In this document: positions 9,549 through 23,476 of the stretch, one piece after another
Numbering within the stretch: the first letter of the stretch is position 1
Layout: the number at the start of each line of letters is the position of its first letter
Virus record (IMG/VR): IMGVR_UViG_3300014202_000308
Location: 1 to 24,292 of that record
Length of the DNA stretch: 24,292 nucleotides
Direction: 5' to 3' (one strand)
Origin: a virus
Lineage: Duplodnaviria; Caudoviricetes
The notes under the pieces: generated by a model
Seen by the model: only the letters and a program-made list of their open reading frames with translations
Database searches by the model: none
Told to the model about the DNA's origin: nothing
Position numbers and translations under genes: made by a program

Positions 9549-9752
9549 ATGGGCTTGGAATTTAGGACAACGAACGCATGTGCTCAACTCACTCGCTACG
9601 GCGGTGCAGTGGCGACCCCAGAACTGGCTGACGTGTTGGAGGCTCTGACCGACATAAACGACGATCTTTGGCACGCGCGCGATCCGGCACTGATTAAGGC
9701 GCAAGTTGAGAAAGTAAAGGCGCTGCTGGATGCTGTTGCGGCTGGCGCATGA
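9549..9752 (+). CDS. Small hypothetical protein
   Basis: GGGAG RBS; 67 aa, predicted helical. Confidence 0.6.
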   Translation: MGLEFRTTNACAQLTRYGGAVATPELADVLEALTDINDDLWHARDPALIKAQVEKVKALLDAVAAGA

Positions 9753-9802
9753 GGGCGCCCAAATCAACTGGCGGCCGTTTCGGCCAACGATTGGAGACCA
9801 GC

Positions 9803-10351
9803 ATGGGACTGAGTGGACATCAAAGCGCGCGGATGAAGAACGACGAGTGGTTGACCCCTCCGGAGATTGTCTCTTCGCTCGGCCCGTTCGATCTTGACCC
9901 GTGCAGCCCGGTGGAACGGCCATGGCCCACTGCGGCGCAGCACTTCACCGTGCGCGACGACGGGCTGGTGCAGCTGTGGCATGGCCGGGTTTGGTGCAAC
10001 CCGCCTTTTGGCCGCCAGGCGGTCAAGTGGCTTCGGAGGATGCGCGACCACGGCAACGGCGTGGCGTTGATCCCGGCGCGCACCGAAACCGCGATGTTCT
10101 ACGAGACGGTGTGGGGGCATGCAGCCGGCGTCCTGTTCCTGCGCTCACGTCCGCATTTCCACTACGTGGACGGCCTCCGAGCGCCGTTCAACAGTGGCGC
10201 TCCGATATGTCTTGTGGCTTACGGCCCCGCGAATCTGGACGCCCTGATGGAAAGCGGGCTGGGATTCACCGTAGTGGGAGCTAACGCCTGGGTTAACGCG
10301 CGGCGTAGCCGTCGCGTTGAACCGCTGGCTATGCCGGCGAACTTGCAATGA
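9803..10351 (+). CDS. Phage DNA N6-adenine methyltransferase (Dam-like)
   Basis: DEWLTPP, FDLDPC, DGL..W.G.VWCNPPF and LIPART motifs; GGAG RBS before ATG 9803. Confidence 0.9.
   Translation: MGLSGHQSARMKNDEWLTPPEIVSSLGPFDLDPCSPVERPWPTAAQHFTVRDDGLVQLWHGRVWCNPPFGRQAVKWLRRMRDHGNGVALIPARTETAMFYETVWGHAAGVLFLRSRPHFHYVDGLRAPFNSGAPICLVAYGPANLDALMESGLGFTVVGANAWVNARRSRRVEPLAMPANLQ
10279..10334 (-). other. Integron attC-like recombination hairpin (56 bp), antisense to the genes
   Basis: The minus strand reads GCATAGC-CAGCG-GTTCAACG-CGA-CGGC-TAC-GCCG-CG-CGTTAAC-CCAGGC-GTTAGCT. This is R''/5 nt/8-nt L''/stem-loop/7-nt L'/6 nt/R', with two unpaired bases on one arm. Confidence 0.68.
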
Positions 10352-13529: not shown

Positions 13530-15634
13530 GTGCGTACCGATCCCTCGGCGATATCGTGCTCGATGCGGCCCGGGTGCTGCTGCCTCCGGATCGTTTGTCG
13601 GTGAGCGACGCCGCCGCCAAATATCGCTACCTGAACAACCCGGGCGCCTACGTCGGACCCTGGCGCAACGAGACCGTGCCCTATCTGCGCGAGCCGATGG
13701 ACACGCTGGCGAGCCGGCAGTATCGCGAGTGGGTATATGTCAAGCCGGCCCAGTCGGGCGGCACGGAATGCGCGCTGAATCTGATTCTGCAAACGATCCT
13801 GCTGAACCCGGCCGATATCCGGTTCTACGAAAAGACCGAAAGCGCCGCGCGGGATTTCTCGAAAGACAAGCTGGCGAAGCTGTTTCGGTATTGCCCCGAG
13901 GCGAAGTCAGAACTGCTGACCGGCAAGAAAGGCGACACGACGCATACCAAGTATTTCCGGGCCGGTACGCACCTGCGGCTGAGCTGGCCGTCGGAAAACG
14001 AGCTGGCGGGACATTCCACCGGCATCAATTTTCTGACGGACTACGACCGCATGCCGCAGGACGTGGGCGGCGAGGGTTCGCCGTTCTCGCTGGCGCGCAT
14101 GCGCAGCACCAGCTTCGGCAGTTTTGCGATGACGGCGGCGGACAGTTCGCCCAGCTTCCCGGTACAGGATGCGAGCTGGCGCTGCCCGCGCGAGACGCCC
14201 CACATGGGGCCGCCGTGCGGCGGGATCATCACGCTCTACAACGAGGGCGACCGCCGCCGCTGGTACTGGCCGTGCCCGGATTGCGGCGCCTATTACGAAC
14301 CGTCGTTTCGGCTGCTTGTGCCGGGCGATCATCCCGAGCCATCGGATGCCGCGCGCGGGGTGGTGATGGCCTGCCCGAGCTGCGGCCTGGCCACGCCACC
14401 CAGCGCCAAGCACGAGATGAATCTGGCGGGCGTATGGTTGCGCGAGGCCGATCTGGTCGCGCTTGGCGGGGGTGCGGCCTTTGTCGACCAGGCCGCGACC
14501 CGCAAGAAAGCCTGGCGCATCGCGCTCGACAAGCCCGAGGCGTACAACACCCGGGCGAGCTTCTGGCTAAAAGGCCCGGCGGCCGCTTTCCAGAACTGGG
14601 AAGCCATGATGGCGAAGTGGCTGAGCGCGCAGCGCATCTACGCCGCCACCGGCGACGATGGCGCGTTGAAGGGTACCGTCAACACCGACCAGTGCGAAGC
14701 CTACAGCCCGCCGCGCAGCACCACGGATCGCTCGGCGGATGAGCTGGCCGAACGCGCCGAGGCGTTGGGAGAGCGCGTCGTGCCGACTGCGGTGCGTTGC
14801 CTGCTGGCCACGGTCGATGTGCAGCGGAACCGGTTCGAGGTACAGGTGCAGGGCGTGGCGCCGGGTGGCGATTTGTTCGTCGTCGACCGCTTCGCGCTGC
14901 GCAAGTCCACGCGCATCGATGCCGACGGGCACCCCTGGCCGGTGCGCCCGGCATCGCATGAAGAAGACTGGAATTTGCTTACCGAGCACGTCGTGGAGCG
15001 CACCTATCCGCTCGGGGACGGCAGCGGCCGGCGGATGGCGATTCGCGCGGTCGGCATCGATTCCGGGGGTGAAGCGGGGGCCACCGAAAAAGCCTACGCG
15101 TATTACCGCAAGCTGCGCCATGCAGGACTGCACACCCGCGTTCGGCTGCTCAAGGGCGGCTCTACCCCGAATGCGCCCAGGGTGCGGCTGTCGCACCCGG
15201 ACAGCAACCGGAAGGATCGCAATGCCGGCGCACGGGGAGAAGTGCCCGTGCTGCTGCTCAATGTGAACATGCTGAAAGATGCGCTCGATGCGCGTCTCGA
15301 TGTGCAGAAAGCCGGTGACGGGATGGTCCACTTTCCCGATTGGCTGCCGCTCGATTTTTTCGCGGAGCTGTGCGCCGAGACCCGCACCAAAAAAGGCTGG
15401 GCGAAAATCGCCGGGCGGAAAAACGAATCGACCGACCTGCTCGTTTACACGCTGGCGCTGATGATCGAGCTCAAGCTGGAAACCATGCCCTGGGGCAAGC
15501 CCTTCCGCTGGGCGGCGCCCTGGGACATGAATTCGCTGGTCACCGCGTCCGCACCGGCGGGTGATGCCACGGCCGGCGATAGCAAGCAAACCAAGAAACA
15601 GACGATGGCCGAGTGGGCCAAGCGGATGGGGTGA
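13526..15634 (+). CDS. Terminase large subunit, lambda GpA family
   Basis: GPW.NETVPYLREPMD, Walker A KPAQSGGTE, TDYDRM, CPDC/CPSC zinc motifs, nuclease motifs TVDVQ, IDSGG and NE..D. Confidence 0.96.
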   Translation: MSAYRSLGDIVLDAARVLLPPDRLSVSDAAAKYRYLNNPGAYVGPWRNETVPYLREPMDTLASRQYREWVYVKPAQSGGTECALNLILQTILLNPADIRFYEKTESAARDFSKDKLAKLFRYCPEAKSELLTGKKGDTTHTKYFRAGTHLRLSWPSENELAGHSTGINFLTDYDRMPQDVGGEGSPFSLARMRSTSFGSFAMTAADSSPSFPVQDASWRCPRETPHMGPPCGGIITLYNEGDRRRWYWPCPDCGAYYEPSFRLLVPGDHPEPSDAARGVVMACPSCGLATPPSAKHEMNLAGVWLREADLVALGGGAAFVDQAATRKKAWRIALDKPEAYNTRASFWLKGPAAAFQNWEAMMAKWLSAQRIYAATGDDGALKGTVNTDQCEAYSPPRSTTDRSADELAERAEALGERVVPTAVRCLLATVDVQRNRFEVQVQGVAPGGDLFVVDRFALRKSTRIDADGHPWPVRPASHEEDWNLLTEHVVERTYPLGDGSGRRMAIRAVGIDSGGEAGATEKAYAYYRKLRHAGLHTRVRLLKGGSTPNAPRVRLSHPDSNRKDRNAGARGEVPVLLLNVNMLKDALDARLDVQKAGDGMVHFPDWLPLDFFAELCAETRTKKGWAKIAGRKNESTDLLVYTLALMIELKLETMPWGKPFRWAAPWDMNSLVTASAPAGDATAGDSKQTKKQTMAEWAKRMG

Positions 15635-15657
15635 CCCGCCGCCGCGCCCCGGACCAA

Positions 15658-15677
15658 CTCGCTTCGGCGAGGTTTTT
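15658..15677 (+). terminator. Intrinsic terminator after the terminase
   Basis: CTCGC-TTCG-GCGAG-GTTTTT. Confidence 0.7.
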
Positions 15678-15679
15678 AT

Positions 15680-15748
15680 GCCCCAGCTTCATTCCGCGAG
15701 GTACCCATGCCCCTGACCCCAGACGAACAGGCACGCCTGACCAGCCTG
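15680..15748 (+). repeat. Direct repeat copy 1 (gpW leader and first 14 codons)
   Basis: 66/69 identical to 18350-18418; offset 2670 bp. Confidence 0.95.
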
Positions 15749-18282: not shown

Positions 18283-18349
18283 CGTAAAACCCCGCCCTTC
18301 AGGGCTGGGGAGATAGAAGCCACAGGCTTTAGCCGTGGGGATCAGTTAC
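18283..18349 (+). mobile_element. Miniature non-autonomous IS200/IS605-family remnant (PATE-like: left and right end hairpins only)
   Basis: CGTAAAA-CCCCGCCC-TTCA-GGGCTGGGG (left-end-like hairpin) joined to GAAG-CCACAGGC-TTTA-GCCGTGG-GGATCAG-TTAC (right-end-like hairpin). No tnpA/tnpB. The left boundary is uncertain. Confidence 0.7.
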
Positions 18350-18418
18350 GCCCCAGTTTCATTCCGCGAGGTATCCATGCCCCTGACCCCAGACGAACAG
18401 GCGCGCCTGACCAGCCTG
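18350..18418 (+). repeat. Direct repeat copy 2 (intact gpW leader and 5' end)
   Basis: 66/69 identical to 15680-15748. Confidence 0.95.
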
Positions 18419-18604
18419 ACGGCGGCGCGTGATGCGATTTTGACGGGCCAGCGCGTGGGCAGCTTTCGGGATTCCGACGGCATGCAGACGAACTATGCCG
18501 ACATGACCGATGCCGACAAGCGTCGCCTGTTTGCGGAGATCGACCGGCTGCAAGCGCTGGCGACGACGCAGCGGCCCCGCGGGCCGGCGAGGGTAATGTG
18601 GTGA
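18377..18604 (+). CDS. W: Head-tail joining protein, gpW family
   Basis: 75 aa, A...ILTG..V...RD.DG....Y.....L...I..L pattern; immediately upstream of the portal; GAGG RBS. Confidence 0.85.
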   Translation: MPLTPDEQARLTSLTAARDAILTGQRVGSFRDSDGMQTNYADMTDADKRRLFAEIDRLQALATTQRPRGPARVMW

Positions 18605-20373
18605 GCGCCGCACCGGTCACTGCCGCCGACGAGGTAAAAACGCTGGTCGGGCCGCGTGGCGAAGTGCTGCGCCGGTTCAGTACCACGGGCGCGGGGGTGA
18701 GCGCGTTCAACGCCACCCGCCCGTCTGGCACCGAGCTGATGCGGTTTGCGCCCAGCCTGGCGTCCGCCGATGGTGATCTGCTGCCCGAGAAACGCGAGCT
18801 CGACGCCCAGGCGCGCGACAACGTGCGCAATGACGGCTATCTGTCGGGTGCGCGGCAGGTCCACGTCGACAACGTGGTGGGCAATCAATTCCGGTTGAAC
18901 GCGCGCCCGAACTGGCGCCTGTTGAGCCGCATCAACCCGGCGCTCGACGAAGCTTGGGCGGAGGAATTCGCGGCCACGGCCGAGGCGCGTTTCAACAACT
19001 GGGCGGAGGATGAAACCAACAACTGGCCCGACGCGCAGCGCATGCAGAATTTCACCGGGCTGGTGCGCATGGTGGCCATGCAGTTGTTCGATGTGGGCGA
19101 ATTTCTCGCCACCGCCGAGTGGCTCAACCGGGGTCCGTACCGCACCGCCCTGCAGGTGATCGATCCGGATCGGCTGTGCAATCCCATGGGACAGAGCGAC
19201 GGCCCCACGCTGCGCCGGGGAGTGATCCTGGGCCGACGGGGCGAGCCGACCGCGTATTCGATCCGCGTCAGTCACCCGGACGATACCCTGGGTTACACCA
19301 CCAACCAGTTCCTCACCAAGATCGTCCCGCGCTTTCGGCCCTGGGGGCGGCCGCAGGTCATCCACCTGTTTTCACGCGAGCGCCCGGACCAGAACCGCGG
19401 CGTGAGCCGGTTGGTGGCGGTGCTGCGCAACATCGATACGACCCGGCGCTATTCGGATCTGGTGTTGCAGAATCTGGCGGTGGGCGCGATGTACGCCGCG
19501 ACCCTCGAAAGCGATCTCGACCGCGAAATGGCGATGAGCTACATCGGGGTCGAAAACCCCGATGGCACAACCAGCGAAGTGAACTACTACGACTGGATGA
19601 TGGGGCAGATCGAGACCTACAGCGAGAACGCCCGGCTGCGCATCGACGGCGTGAAAGTGCCCTATCTGCCCATCGGCACCAGCCTGAAGATGAACACCGC
19701 GAAGAACGCGGGCGGCGTCGGCTCCGATTTTGAAGACAGCCTGATCCGCAAGATCGCCGCCGGTATCGGCATGAGCAAAGAACGCTTCATGCGTGACTGG
19801 AGCAAGACCAACTATTCCAGCAGCCGCGCGGGATCGCTCGAAGACTGGAAATACTTTCTGTCGGTGCGGCGGTTCGGTCCGCATCGCTTCGCGTGCATGG
19901 TGTACCAGCTCGTGCTGGAAGAGATGTGGTATCGCAAGGAACTGCCGATGCCGCGCGGCGCCCCGGATTTCTGGGAGATGCCGGCAGCCTACGCGGCTTG
20001 CACCTGGCGCGGTGCCGGGCGCGGCCAGATCGACCCGGTGAAAGAGACCACCGCGTCCGTGATGAAAAACGAGGCGGGGCTGTCGACGCTGGAACGTGAG
20101 GTATCGGAGCTGAACGGCGAAGACTGGCGCGACGTGATCGACCAGCGCGCCCGGGAACGCAAATACGCCGCCGACAAGGGGCTGCCGGCGATGAGCCTGT
20201 CGATCTCTGCGTCCAGTGCCGACAACAATCCCGAGAACGATCCGAGCAACCCGAACGATCCCAACAACGCCAATGGTAACGACGACGGCGTGAGCGGGAT
20301 CACCACGCGCGTCACTCTCACGTCTATCCCGCCCGCGAAACCGCGCGTGCGGGTGACCGGGGGGCCGGCATGA
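18601..20373 (+). CDS. Portal protein, lambda family
   Basis: ARD.VRND, VDNVVG, LQVIDPDRL, ERPDQ.RGVS, D.SK.NYSSSR and IDPVKE motifs; GTGA overlap with gpW. Confidence 0.95.
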   Translation: MSAAPVTAADEVKTLVGPRGEVLRRFSTTGAGVSAFNATRPSGTELMRFAPSLASADGDLLPEKRELDAQARDNVRNDGYLSGARQVHVDNVVGNQFRLNARPNWRLLSRINPALDEAWAEEFAATAEARFNNWAEDETNNWPDAQRMQNFTGLVRMVAMQLFDVGEFLATAEWLNRGPYRTALQVIDPDRLCNPMGQSDGPTLRRGVILGRRGEPTAYSIRVSHPDDTLGYTTNQFLTKIVPRFRPWGRPQVIHLFSRERPDQNRGVSRLVAVLRNIDTTRRYSDLVLQNLAVGAMYAATLESDLDREMAMSYIGVENPDGTTSEVNYYDWMMGQIETYSENARLRIDGVKVPYLPIGTSLKMNTAKNAGGVGSDFEDSLIRKIAAGIGMSKERFMRDWSKTNYSSSRAGSLEDWKYFLSVRRFGPHRFACMVYQLVLEEMWYRKELPMPRGAPDFWEMPAAYAACTWRGAGRGQIDPVKETTASVMKNEAGLSTLEREVSELNGEDWRDVIDQRARERKYAADKGLPAMSLSISASSADNNPENDPSNPNDPNNANGNDDGVSGITTRVTLTSIPPAKPRVRVTGGPA

Positions 20374-22118
20374 GCGCCCCCGAGCGCGTATTGATCGGCA
20401 ACGCTGAGTTGTGGCACGGCGAGGGTCTTGACGTTCTGCCTCTGCTCGATTCGGTATCCGCCGTGGTGACCGATCCGCCCTACGGCATCAGGTTTATGGG
20501 CAAGCGCTGGGACTACGACGTGCCATCAACCGAGCTGTGGGCGTTGGTGCTGGATCGCCTGCTGCCGGGCGGCCACCTGCTGGCATTCGCGGGAACCCGC
20601 ACGCAGCACCGCATGGCCGTGCGGATCGAAGATGCCGGTTTCGAGATTCGGGACATGCTGGCCTGGGTGTACGGGTCTGGATTTCCGAAAAGCCTGGACG
20701 TGGGCAAGGCGATTGACAAGCAGGCTGGCGCGAAGCGGGACGTTATTTCGTCCTGCGCGACTGGCTGGAGCGGCACCCTCGGCGGGAGATCGGCGTTTTC
20801 CGGGCTTGGTGGTGCGCCAGATGTGCGGACCGTTACGGCACCGGCAACCGACCTCGCCCGTCAATGGGATGGCTGGGGCACCGCGCTCAAGCCGGCCTTC
20901 GAGCCGATCACCTTGGCCCGCCGGCCTCTAAGCGGAACGGTCGCTCAGAACGTGCGGGCGCATGGCACCGGTGCGCTGAATATCGATGGATGCAGAGTGC
21001 CTACCGACGAAGTGCTGCGTGCCGGCACCGGCAACATTCCCTGCCGGCACGACCAGTCGCAGCCACGCGGGCGAACTGGCGAGGCCAGTGCGCAGCGCCG
21101 CTATACCGAAAACGGAGGCACCGACTTCGCAATGACGCCGGGGCCACGTGGCGGCGATCCCGCAGGCCGCTGGCCCGCCAACCTGATCCACGATGGCAGC
21201 GAGGAAGTGTTGGCGCTGTTCCCTGACTCGAAGGGGCAGCAGGGGGATCTGCGCGCGACGGGGCGTGCTCGCCCGTCATCAGGTCGATTCGGCGACATGG
21301 CGCCGCCGACCCCGCACCCTGCGCGAAACGATACTGGCAGCGCCGCCCGGTTCTTCAAACAATGTTCATTCAACGAGGGGGACGCATGCGACCTTGCGAA
21401 CATTGCGGTGCGCCTTTCCGACCAGCAAAAGCCATTCGACGCTTCTGCTCTCGTTCGTGCAGTCAGCACGGTGCTCCCCGAGGAATTGTGCGCGGCCGTG
21501 TCGCTCTCGGAACCACTCACTACGAGCGCCACGGGGCGGCAGTTAGAGACGCTTTGCGCCAGCGCTATGCAAGCGATCCAGACTTTCGGACCAAGGTTCT
21601 GGCGCGAGCCGCAGCCCGGCGAACTTTCCCTGACGCTCAACCGTGTGAACGTTGCGGCGCACCGAACGCCGACAGGCATCACGACGATTACGGTAAGCCA
21701 TTGGAGATCCGATGGAAGTGCAGAGCCTGTCACGTTCATCATCACGCCGACGAGCTCGGCAGTTGGGGCGAAGGACTCCGTGCCGTCTACGGCCGCTAGG
21801 CTGATGTACTGCGCCAAGGCGCGCGCCTCCGAACGTGGCGCAGGCAATGACCATCCGACGGTTAAACCGCTGGCGCTGATGCGCTGGCTGCTGACCCTGG
21901 TGGTGCCGCCACATGGGCTTGTGCTCGATCCATTCCTTGGATCTGGATCAACCGGTGTCGCCGCCATTGAGATGGGTATGCGGTTCATCGGTATCGAGCG
22001 TGATCGCAAGTCCTTTGAAATCGCCTGCGCCAGAATCGAAGCTGCCCAACGGCAAGGCCGGATGTTCAGCCCTGAGCCCCCAGAGATGCCGGAGCAGGCA
22101 AGTATGGGCCTGGCGTGA
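20370..22118 (+). CDS. DNA N4-cytosine/N6-adenine methyltransferase (beta class) carrying a ~137-aa in-frame insertion
   Basis: VTDPPY (motif IV), GFPKS, GTALKPAFEPI, GRWPAN, HPTVKP, VLDPFLGSGSTG (motif I) and FIGIE are all in one frame. Confidence 0.93.
   Translation: MSAPERVLIGNAELWHGEGLDVLPLLDSVSAVVTDPPYGIRFMGKRWDYDVPSTELWALVLDRLLPGGHLLAFAGTRTQHRMAVRIEDAGFEIRDMLAWVYGSGFPKSLDVGKAIDKQAGAKRDVISSCATGWSGTLGGRSAFSGLGGAPDVRTVTAPATDLARQWDGWGTALKPAFEPITLARRPLSGTVAQNVRAHGTGALNIDGCRVPTDEVLRAGTGNIPCRHDQSQPRGRTGEASAQRRYTENGGTDFAMTPGPRGGDPAGRWPANLIHDGSEEVLALFPDSKGQQGDLRATGRARPSSGRFGDMAPPTPHPARNDTGSAARFFKQCSFNEGDACDLANIAVRLSDQQKPFDASALVRAVSTVLPEELCAAVSLSEPLTTSATGRQLETLCASAMQAIQTFGPRFWREPQPGELSLTLNRVNVAAHRTPTGITTITVSHWRSDGSAEPVTFIITPTSSAVGAKDSVPSTAARLMYCAKARASERGAGNDHPTVKPLALMRWLLTLVVPPHGLVLDPFLGSGSTGVAAIEMGMRFIGIERDRKSFEIACARIEAAQRQGRMFSPEPPEMPEQASMGLA
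21386..21799 (+). CDS. Nested out-of-frame zinc-finger HNH-like endonuclease inside the methyltransferase gene
   Basis: GAGGGGG RBS then ATG 21386; N-terminal CEHCG..F...FCSRSC zinc finger; C-terminal CERCG...HHDDY.KPL.I.W.CRACH..HH beta-beta-alpha-metal-like motif. Confidence 0.8.
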   Translation: MRPCEHCGAPFRPAKAIRRFCSRSCSQHGAPRGIVRGRVALGTTHYERHGAAVRDALRQRYASDPDFRTKVLARAAARRTFPDAQPCERCGAPNADRHHDDYGKPLEIRWKCRACHVHHHADELGSWGEGLRAVYGR

Positions 22119-22147
22119 CCGGCACCCGACAACACACTGGAGCACCC

Positions 22148-23476
22148 ATGAACCACGACGCCCTGCGCGCCATGGCGGACCGCCTGAATCTGGCGCCGCT
22201 GCTGCTATCCGACATCGCCGCGCGCAATCTGCGCCTGCTGCGCCATGCCCGGTTCGAGCCGGATGCGCGCGGCGAGATCGCCGCCGACCAGCGCGTCGAT
22301 GCCCATGGCATGACCTCCCGGGGCAGTGAGCGCCCCTACGCGGTGCTGGAAGGCGGGATCGCCCTGGTGACCATCAGCGGCACCCTGCTGGCGAACTACA
22401 ACTATGCCGGCTCTTATTACACCGGGTACGAGTCCATCGAAACCCGCCTGGATGCGGCGCTCGCCGATCCCGATGTGCTGGGGGTGGCGCTGCTGATCGA
22501 TAGCCACGGCGGCGAGGCGGCGGGCTGCTTCGAGACCGCGGACCGCATTTATCGCGGTCGTGACACCAAGCCCGTCTGGGCGCTCGCCAAGCACGCCGCG
22601 CTGTCCGGTGGCTATGCGCTGGCATCGAGCGCCGACCGCCTGTATGGCACGCCCTCCGCGCGCCTGGGCAGCATCGGTGTGGTGGTGGTGCACATGGATG
22701 TCAGCGGCTCGCTGGATCAGTACGGCGTTGCGGTGACGCTGATCCACAGCGGCGATCATAAAGTGGACGGCAACCCGTTCCAGCCGCTGCCGCCCGCCGT
22801 GCGCGCGCGTATTCAGGCCGACCTGGACACCACCCGGCAGACGTTCGCCGGCGCCGTGGCCCGCAATCGTGGCCTGGGCGTCGATGCGGTGCTGGCCACC
22901 GAAGCCGCCGTGTATCGCGTCGAGGAGGCTGTGGCCCTGGGCCTGGCCGACGGCGTGCGCGACACCGATGCGTTTTTCGCCGAGTTCCGCGCGTTTCTGG
23001 AGACTCAGCAAACCGAGCAAACCAACCGGGGTTTCGTCGCCATGTCGGCGCCGGCCCCACTTCAACCCAGCACGACAGGAGTGCAACCCATGACCCAGCA
23101 GACCAATCCGGGTGAGGCGGCGCCTGCCGTTGCCCAGGTAACCACCCAGCAAGACCCCGCCGCGCTTGCGGCAGCCCGCACCGAAGGTGTCGTCGCCGAG
23201 CGCGAGCGCGTGGCGGCCATTCTCGGCAGCGAGGAAGCCAAGGGCCGCGAAGAGCAGGCGCAGTTTCTCGCCACCAAGACCAGCGTGTCCGTGCCCGAGG
23301 CGCTGGGCATTCTGGCCGCGAGCCCCACGGCCCGCAGCGGATCGCCCCTGGATGCCGCCATGTCCGCCGGTGGGCCGGACGTTGGGGGTGGGACGGGCGG
23401 CGATACCACGCCTGCGAAGCCGATCATCAACAGCGCGGACATTTACGCGCGCCGCGCCGCCGTCGCCAAGCACTGA
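22148..23476 (+). CDS. Prohead protease, S49 family (gpC-like), with C-terminal scaffold
   Basis: IDSHGGE, ALSGGYALAS (catalytic Ser), GSIGV and GDHKVDGNP (Lys); GGAG RBS before ATG 22148. Confidence 0.93.
   Translation: MNHDALRAMADRLNLAPLLLSDIAARNLRLLRHARFEPDARGEIAADQRVDAHGMTSRGSERPYAVLEGGIALVTISGTLLANYNYAGSYYTGYESIETRLDAALADPDVLGVALLIDSHGGEAAGCFETADRIYRGRDTKPVWALAKHAALSGGYALASSADRLYGTPSARLGSIGVVVVHMDVSGSLDQYGVAVTLIHSGDHKVDGNPFQPLPPAVRARIQADLDTTRQTFAGAVARNRGLGVDAVLATEAAVYRVEEAVALGLADGVRDTDAFFAEFRAFLETQQTEQTNRGFVAMSAPAPLQPSTTGVQPMTQQTNPGEAAPAVAQVTTQQDPAALAAARTEGVVAERERVAAILGSEEAKGREEQAQFLATKTSVSVPEALGILAASPTARSGSPLDAAMSAGGPDVGGGTGGDTTPAKPIINSADIYARRAAVAKH
23090..23476 (+). CDS. Internal in-frame scaffold protein (Nu3-like)
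   Basis: Strong AGGAG RBS before in-frame ATG 23090 (AGGAGTGCAACCCATG, nearly identical to the capsid leader AGGAGTACAACCCCATG); AERERVAAIL...EAKGRE motif. Confidence 0.7.
   Translation: MTQQTNPGEAAPAVAQVTTQQDPAALAAARTEGVVAERERVAAILGSEEAKGREEQAQFLATKTSVSVPEALGILAASPTARSGSPLDAAMSAGGPDVGGGTGGDTTPAKPIINSADIYARRAAVAKH

Follow-up and report, generated by a model that had tools for sequence, protein, structure and literature searches.

The window, i.e. the whole 24.3-kb virus record analysed here, carries in its methyltransferase (MTase) gene what is very probably a ShiLan-type mobile insert, likely a homing element that does without splicing: a 450-nt cassette at RFF/YCAKA that encodes a predicted HNH-type nuclease in the -1 frame and leaves the MTase frame free of stop codons. 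The cassette has a length divisible by three, occupies one site, is missing from close relatives and moves among divergent MTase alleles. Sequence statistics indicate that the HNH frame is under purifying selection, and that the MTase frame is selected against stops and, weakly, for conservative residues. A preliminary description of this DNA had read the MTase frame as uninterrupted and had placed a complete gene in its -1 frame, from ATG 21386 to TAG 21799. Both frames were confirmed (582 and 137 aa; PF01555 E 6e-24 for the former). The accompanying proposal, that the element survives by keeping its alternative frame stop-free and is tolerated by the host enzyme, gains support, with occupied alleles scattered over the MTase tree.

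Table 1. Coordinates of the features discussed (window positions unless a locus is named)
Feature	Position	Strand	Basis or remark
Lambda-family portal gene (context)	18598..20373	+	PF05136 E 4e-80
Beta-class N6/N4 DNA methyltransferase (MTase) gene, 582 aa	20370..22118	+	PF01555 N6_N4_Mtase E 6e-24; phrog_67 E 1e-61
DPPY catalytic motif IV, residues 35-38, 5' of insert	20472..20483	+	sequence; at least 90% conserved in MTase alignment
5' half of presumed homing site, GSAARFF	21336..21356	+	DNA-level conservation in 63 empty and 62 occupied alleles
Mobile insert, 450 nt = 150 aa (K330-M479) in MTase frame	21357..21806	+	absent from nearest alleles; contig joint 21356 to 21807
Shine-Dalgarno-like GAGGGGG, from Glu-Gly codons of the insert's acidic 5' loop	21375..21381	+	4 nt before ATG; anti-SD duplex -10.9 kcal/mol
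Predicted nested zinc-finger/HNH-type endonuclease gene, -1 frame, 137 aa	21386..21799	+	phrog_2340, phrog_1271, dN/dS 0.30, model
Last three MTase-frame codons of insert, R-L-M, degenerate copy of pre-site RFF	21798..21806	+	HNH stop overlaps Arg codon
3' half of presumed homing site, YCAKA	21807..21821	+	empty-allele comparison; DNA-level conservation
HPTVKP through DPFLGSG, SAM-binding half, 3' of insert	21852..21947	+	PF01555 best stretch residues 485-552
S49 head-maturation protease gene (context)	22148..23476	+	PF01343
Nested HNH-type genes, three further MTase sites	L187:444-1259; L098:820-1401; L110:1546-2064; L129:770-1279; L022:3469-3894; L175:2469-2903		some in +1, not -1 frame

The methyltransferase gene and its setting

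The MTase gene lies among lambda-like head genes, and its ATG overlaps the stop codon of the portal gene (ATGA). Its frame is open across the whole insert (20370-22118), with DPPY before the FxGxG SAM motif, the order of a beta-class amino-methyltransferase; DpnA and CcrM are the closest solved structures. Both patterns occur within one ORF in 41 of the 62 occupied loci, the remainder being contig edges, motif variants or split genes. A contig from soil DNA run X7 that passes from portal directly into protease (joint 20375 to 22127) makes the MTase gene look accessory. Within 20300-22200, neither a sigma-70 promoter nor a terminator pattern was found. An antisense ORF (21101-22156, 351 aa) was rejected as a gene: it has no Pfam match, and among 62 relatives even the least interrupted reverse frame is open in just 10.

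Two observations concern other parts of the window. A second, small ORF at 9749-10351 has an NPPF motif and resembles a phage adenine methyltransferase. Translations of minus-strand ORFs at 15540-15680 and 18300-18420 have a stretch of ~25 residues in common, probably reflecting a DNA repeat that precedes two head/structural gene blocks.

Boundaries of the insert and the empty site

The nearest MTase alleles, P0016, P0033, P0049 and P0056, lack the insert. Because empty alleles read GSAARFF-YCAK without interruption, the insert can be delimited as 21357-21806. Among the best 120 matches to MTase residues 300-582, which are ranked matches and not frequencies, 29 have nothing between the two halves of the site, and 91 have a long homologous insert there, the window's own being present in two of the latter. 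Insert-less alleles had been predicted from the window sequence, and they are found both in these 29 proteins and in a contig of X7 that skips exactly 21357-21806. This contig is short (depth 2.5; shorter side 83 letters, aligned at 85% likeness). A second X7 contig spans 21559-22091 with one difference from the window, and the empty and occupied forms are thus both in this run, among the 4 of 20 listed runs that were compared.

The insert had been placed at 21387-21797 (411 nt) in the preliminary description, with its boundaries at the start and stop of the nested gene. This boundary falls 39 nt short of the mobile unit; the 13-residue loop that would result does, however, resemble the natural loop of L294/L309, KQCDYTEEDARFF. 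We take 450 nt as the moving unit because the 5' loop travels with the HNH gene in close pairs. At the 3' end of the insert, an Arg stands three residues before the Tyr in 55 of 62 cases, written by six different codons, and Phe takes the next position in 51 of 62.

The segment is not a conserved native MTase domain, since the closest relatives lack it, and in the MTase frame it has no Pfam match. An insertion sequence was also rejected, with no terminal repeats found and only weak zinc-ribbon matches to TnpB/Cas12f, far below curated cut-offs.

A third allele class carries a loop of 4-15 residues at the insertion site. It accounts for 16 of 64 pattern matches (L294, L309, L280, L283, L286, L288, L291, L299, L303, L314, L324, L327, L329, L334, L336 and L337), and its loops are mostly acidic and end in F-x. 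The loop starts of these 16 MTases resemble the 5' ends of occupied inserts, and ShiLan gp65 has a 4-residue loop at the same site. Close relatives of the short-loop alleles were absent from the compared set. The short loops may be ancestral targets, or remnants after loss of the HNH gene.

The predicted nested nuclease and its family

The nested ORF of the window runs from ATG 21386 to TAG 21797-21799, with another in-frame ATG at 21362, and matches phrog_2340 'endonuclease' at E 7e-8. The aligned family members match phrog_2340 in 14 of 14 cases and phrog_1271 'HNH endonuclease' in 11 of 14. The preliminary description had noted two CxxC zinc modules and an HH.DY.KPL...W.C..CH..H motif; both are conserved in the family, as an N-terminal CxxC..CxxxC and as CxxC..HHDDY.KPL..W.C..CH..H. 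In a model with pLDDT 82, the protein has a zinc finger and two long helices, and it ends in a strand-strand-helix unit that bears the invariant H98, H99, H116 and H120. The conserved Asn of the HNH motif appears to be replaced by Glu, Asp or Ser in the nested family.

General searches returned little. Pfam HNH matches one of 14 family members (E 0.005), the best hit of the HNH profile to PDB sequences reaches only E 0.046, and the top Foldseek match of the model, the phage GVE2 HNH (5h0m), is not significant (E 0.57). In the ESM Atlas the HNH protein falls into unnamed clusters (0.95) and the insert frame has sub-0.9 matches only; a cluster look-up gave no informative names. Annotated phages contain no close HNH relative, the best identities being below 60% with E about 1e-7. 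From the PHROG profiles and the motifs, the nested protein is likely an HNH-type nuclease. A distant relative of it, L277:2351-2779 (142 aa), is annotated as 'baseplate wedge protein' in several phage records, probably a mis-annotation.

Loci from viral, metagenome and genome collections were scanned with an HNH profile that took no account of context, and the best 80 of each scan were retained. All 88 matches scoring at least 140 among those listed (the window plus 87 loci, of which some recur in more than one collection) are nested in the -1 frame of this MTase, with its own frame stop-free. The insertion point is RFF/Y in 81 of the 81 listed loci that could be scored, the other seven of the 88 being cut by contig ends (5) or missed by the junction pattern (2). 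None of the weaker listed matches (score below 90) is nested in an MTase. Dereplication at 90% leaves 62 distinct inserts of 420-729 nt, every one with a length that is a multiple of 3. The only named host of a nested HNH gene among the matches listed is Paraburkholderia phenazinium (L249).

In the HNH tree, a starred branch separates the 62 nested representatives from 51 free-standing relatives, a split that is partly circular because the profile was built from nested members. One origin from a free-standing gene fits this separation.

Selection on both reading frames

For the window alone, synonymous recoding gives a probability of about 0.2-0.37 that the MTase frame is open under the HNH gene. 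Therefore a single locus proves little and the family carries the proof; chance openness is plausible for one locus, and not for 62. Over the HNH gene, the 62 inserts contain no MTase-frame stops, compared with 113-134 expected from synonymous recoding, and the frame is open in 62 of them compared with 8-9 expected. The third frame of the same inserts has 531 stops, and among free-standing HNH relatives of at least 110 codons the frame equivalent to that of the MTase is open in only 2 of 76. An internal control is provided by Leu, Ile and Val codons ending in TA, which are found in 0 of 484 positions before A or G, where they would create a stop, and in 56 of 430 before C or T. The insert sequences share ancestry, so these counts are not independent events.

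Across 19 disjoint pairs, dN/dS was lowest for the HNH frame (0.30) and higher for the MTase frame (1.18) and the third frame (1.60), implying that the HNH frame dominates selection. By this measure ordinary purifying selection is absent from the MTase frame of the insert. The 264 differences that are silent in the HNH frame are nevertheless more conservative in the MTase frame than the matched possible changes that serve as the null (BLOSUM -0.66 vs -0.95, sd 0.06; 0 of 2000 draws), and this signal is absent from the third frame (p 0.28) and from 17 single-coding control pairs (p 0.17). The result is supportive and not final, because the null ignores mutation context, and it points to an amino-acid-level constraint on the insert in the MTase frame that is weaker than stop avoidance. 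Stop avoidance together with conservative residues suggests that the insert is very likely translated within the MTase and not spliced out. The earlier expectation that both frames would be maintained across relatives thus holds, with no MTase-frame stop in 62 inserts and an HNH dN/dS of 0.30.

Mobility of the insert

The alleles closest to the two halves of the window's MTase are empty. Identity to P0016 is 80% across 300 N-terminal residues, 88% downstream of the site and 96% in the final 67 residues; for the best occupied allele it is about 60%. In a tree of the N-terminal half of the MTase (157 rows), the window shares a starred clade with 13 empty alleles. The occupied or empty label changes 20 times on this tree, at least 6 of the changes being forced by starred branches, and the occupied alleles are more clustered than in shuffles (51 changes). 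Monophyly of the occupied alleles is rejected (AU p 9e-5) for 24 rows picked after the 157-row tree had been seen.

Comparison of close pairs points in the same direction. L113 and L116 have HNH DNA that is 96% identical and C-terminal exons that are 76% identical. Of 10 pairs with more than 86% HNH identity (89-98% at the DNA level), 7 show a drop in flank identity both upstream and downstream within about 30-60 nt; in some pairs the downstream drop is mild, and the upstream one is inflated by the general hypervariability of the sequence before the site. A correlation between HNH and MTase C-terminal identities persists (r2 0.22). Compared with window 20370-21356, P0001 and P0002 have swapped N-terminal variable modules, with an identical insert and C-terminus, and recombination among the MTases is therefore active. 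Homing would be the simplest cause of the patchiness, with a contribution from general recombination.

It is also conceivable, if improbable, that the two frames form a domesticated module, in which the HNH protein and the longer MTase act as a compact nuclease/methylase pair or the insert is a useful extra domain, spread by selection and ordinary recombination. The amino-acid-level constraint in the MTase frame and the free recombination among these MTases would agree with this. So would the AlphaFold model of the MTase, in which the insert core has helices and four strands (block pLDDT 56-84), although the model comes from a 76-sequence alignment and covariation imposed by the HNH frame may contribute to the core. 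However, intact empty alleles are common and lie scattered among the occupied ones, and the whole MTase gene can be missing between portal and protease. Different HNH lineages likewise occupy other sites of the MTase gene, and selfish invasion therefore fits better than domestication. The nuclease/methylase pair, which the preliminary description had offered as its alternative, is likewise disfavoured by the patchy distribution.

Intron, intein and bypassing

Neither intron nor intein signatures were found, in agreement with what had been read from the window at the outset. No register with U at the 5' splice site and a terminal G exists in more than 12 of the 62 inserts, and no Rfam match appears at E <= 1; outside the HNH ORF only about 30 nt (5') and 7 nt (3') of the insert are left. 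Group I and group II introns were rejected on these grounds, with no ribozyme core match and no consistent splice-site register. The first residue of the insert is K, F, Y or A, a His-Asn end is absent from all 62, and Tyr follows the insert. An intein, with its Cys/Ser first residue, His-Asn end, Cys/Ser/Thr at +1 and Hint domain, has no counterpart here in any of these features.

There is accordingly little room for an unrecognised RNA or protein splicing reaction, or for ribosomal bypassing, that would yield a mature MTase without the insert, and we regard this as very unlikely. The degenerate RFF copies at both ends do look like matched take-off and landing sites. Against this stand the rarity of the U and terminal G register, the lack of an Rfam match, the few nucleotides beyond the HNH ORF and the insert ends, which are not intein-like; moreover, an insert removed by RNA splicing or skipped by bypassing ribosomes would have no need to stay stop-free.

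Expression of the nested gene

A start codon occurs inside the insert before the first CxxC in all 62 cases (ATG 51, TTG 6, GTG 5), mostly 24-36 nt into the insert, and 29% of the preceding codons encode Asp or Glu. SD pairing of -3.5 kcal/mol or better is present in 35 of 62 inserts and lacking in 27, and for the 46 inserts with a single candidate start the SD energy is better than for 590 control ATGs (p 4e-4). No unusual RNA fold was detected around the internal start (z 0.35). The preliminary description had attributed the ribosome-binding site to Glu-Gly codons of the host gene; the sequence is indeed there, but its codons lie inside the insert, travel with it and are missing from empty alleles. 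The HNH protein is presumably made by internal initiation.

A fusion produced by -1 frameshifting from the MTase, which we consider very improbable, would be consistent with the window's -1 frame, open from upstream of the junction, and with the 27 inserts that have no clear SD. A frameshift at the junction cannot be general, however, because in 54 of 81 loci a stop closes the -1 frame between the junction and the HNH gene, although a shift after the last stop would be compatible with this, and a start codon, ATG in 51 cases, lies just upstream of the first CxxC in 62 of 62.

A possible life cycle

In the reading that we prefer, a mobile cassette with an out-of-frame nuclease, ribosomes would start the HNH gene internally, in many cases after an SD-like site that acidic codons of the MTase frame provide. 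The nuclease would cut or nick the empty allele near the conserved RFFYCAKA DNA during co-infection or phage-prophage encounters, and repair of the cut allele would copy the cassette in. The occupied allele would be immune, because the cassette splits the site. The 3' end of the cassette would rebuild R-F-x-Y before CAKA. The MTase may tolerate 150 extra residues because the insertion point falls in a variable linker that connects the DPPY half to the SAM-binding half; the region is naturally plastic, with loops of 0-15 residues, and ShiLan gp65 ends just after the site. In the AlphaFold model of the MTase, both catalytic halves are confident (86-98 by block), and low-confidence linkers (below 50; residues 335-353 and 462-481) mark the junctions.

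Nested nucleases at other sites of the methyltransferase gene

Other out-of-frame nucleases are nested in an open MTase frame after the DPPY region (L187), after GFPK (L098, L110, L129), at the ShiLan site (L082, L131, L188) and between CAKA and HPTVKP (L022, L175). The MTase gene thus has five sites with nested nucleases, the window's included; our selection statistics cover the window's site. In three loci from other viral and metagenome contigs, an HNH_3 gene at the ShiLan site accompanies a window-type element in the same gene (L082:1475-2047, L131:1412-2068, L188:939-1475).

Several loci show different arrangements. Out-of-frame nuclease ORFs in long insertions before SGFPK (L139:1120-1911, L169:138-1085, L130:4-744) have ends that look intein-like. 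In L113:1552-2199, L183:746-1393 and L129:1535-2218, the MTase frame is broken directly behind the WPAN motif by an HNH-like gene, which may represent a split gene or an intron. In L098 (3111-3887) and L172, the MTase frame stops ~60 codons past the RFF/Y site, followed by a DUF559-type endonuclease gene and then by a separate ORF for the SAM-binding half; L098 has four nuclease genes in one MTase locus. In ShiLan (L276:4786-8059), gp65 ends before HPTVKP and a small gene annotated as DNA methylase (gp67) follows, possibly a naturally split enzyme.

A more far-reaching combination is that the shadow frame is a selected, folding domain born by overprinting, that alleles pass through a full cycle from empty to invaded to a 'mini' acidic loop of 4-15 residues immune to cutting, and that at least five sites were invaded by different nucleases. 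We offer this joint proposal only tentatively and think it rather unlikely to hold in full. If it were true, read-through homing would be a general third route beside introns and inteins.

Comparison with known systems

HNH homing endonucleases of phages, whether encoded in group I introns or free-standing (for example I-HmuI and the T4 mob genes), combine a zinc finger with an HNH-type nuclease and spread laterally in a site-specific manner. The window's element has the zinc finger and the HNH-type nuclease in common with them, and its lateral spread would be a further likeness. It differs in that it has no ribozyme scaffold, is not intergenic, and leaves the host protein neither split nor spliced.

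Inteins with out-of-frame homing endonucleases are closer, as far as their accessible descriptions go, in that a nuclease is overprinted and the host frame stays open (bioRxiv 10.1101/2025.01.02.630785; 10.64898/2026.09.14.751524). They have splicing domains and excise themselves (bioRxiv 10.1101/2025.01.02.630785), whereas the window's insert has no such domain. The Pacc40 gp60 insert (PMC11855218) and Applejack gp54/gp55 (PMC12613952) are likewise described as an out-of-frame HNH-like gene inside a phage methylase. Free-standing relatives are reported for the Pacc40 insert, as we find for the window's family; by its published description, the Pacc40 insert is in a divergent methylase at a different position (PMC11855218).

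The closest precedent is the ShiLan domain, described as an out-of-frame HNH gene in an open phage methylase frame (Arsenault, Gosselin, Gogarten 2025, PMC11855218; Gosselin et al. 2023, PMC9957025). The newness of design implied by the preliminary description therefore does not stand, because the same inference was published in 2025 for this domain in the same MTase family. The accessible account presents about ten mycobacteriophage sequences, without selection analysis or experiment (PMC11855218), and in it no RBS is found and leaderless GTG starts are proposed (PMC11855218). Our search of accessible full texts found no paper on the present insertion site or HNH family; the hit lists that accompany the ShiLan paper might include members of the family.

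The likeness to ShiLan is extensive. The window's insert sits at a fixed site in a phage methylase and is missing from close homologues; it has a length that is a multiple of 3, an open host frame, an HNH-type ORF whose start and stop lie near the insert ends, and a patchy distribution. The host family is the same (ShiLan gp65 is PF01555 and matches the MTase profile at E 1e-93). To the extent of the published description, both also have a zinc-finger HNH gene in the -1 (third) frame under an open host frame, no intron or intein signs, a patchy distribution, insert ends that resemble flanking host sequence, and evidence that is computational only.

The window's element is nevertheless not a ShiLan orthologue, since the site is different and the zinc finger alone aligns, over 33 columns. 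The ShiLan site lies at TALKP..EPI near window residue 175, ~155 codons upstream, whereas the window's follows residue 329. ShiLan-site relatives match Pfam HNH_3, which the window's family does not, and the window's HNH protein has 137 aa compared with 195 aa in ShiLan. The window family starts mostly with ATG, over half with an SD-like site, in contrast to ShiLan as described, with GTG starts and no such site. On these comparisons of sequence, the window's element is a separate, widespread lineage of a known kind, at a different site.

The kind of element was thus published in 2025, and what is new here is the lineage, the site and the nuclease. Copies of the lineage number in the dozens and are diverged, its empty and occupied alleles can be nearly identical, and its junction is exact; it adds a candidate internal ribosome-binding site and controlled evidence of selection on both frames. 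It makes directly testable whether a homing endonuclease can persist in a gene without splicing or gene splitting, and provides a tractable case of a new protein segment arising via overprinting. It also means that many long phage 'DNA methylase' annotations conceal nucleases.
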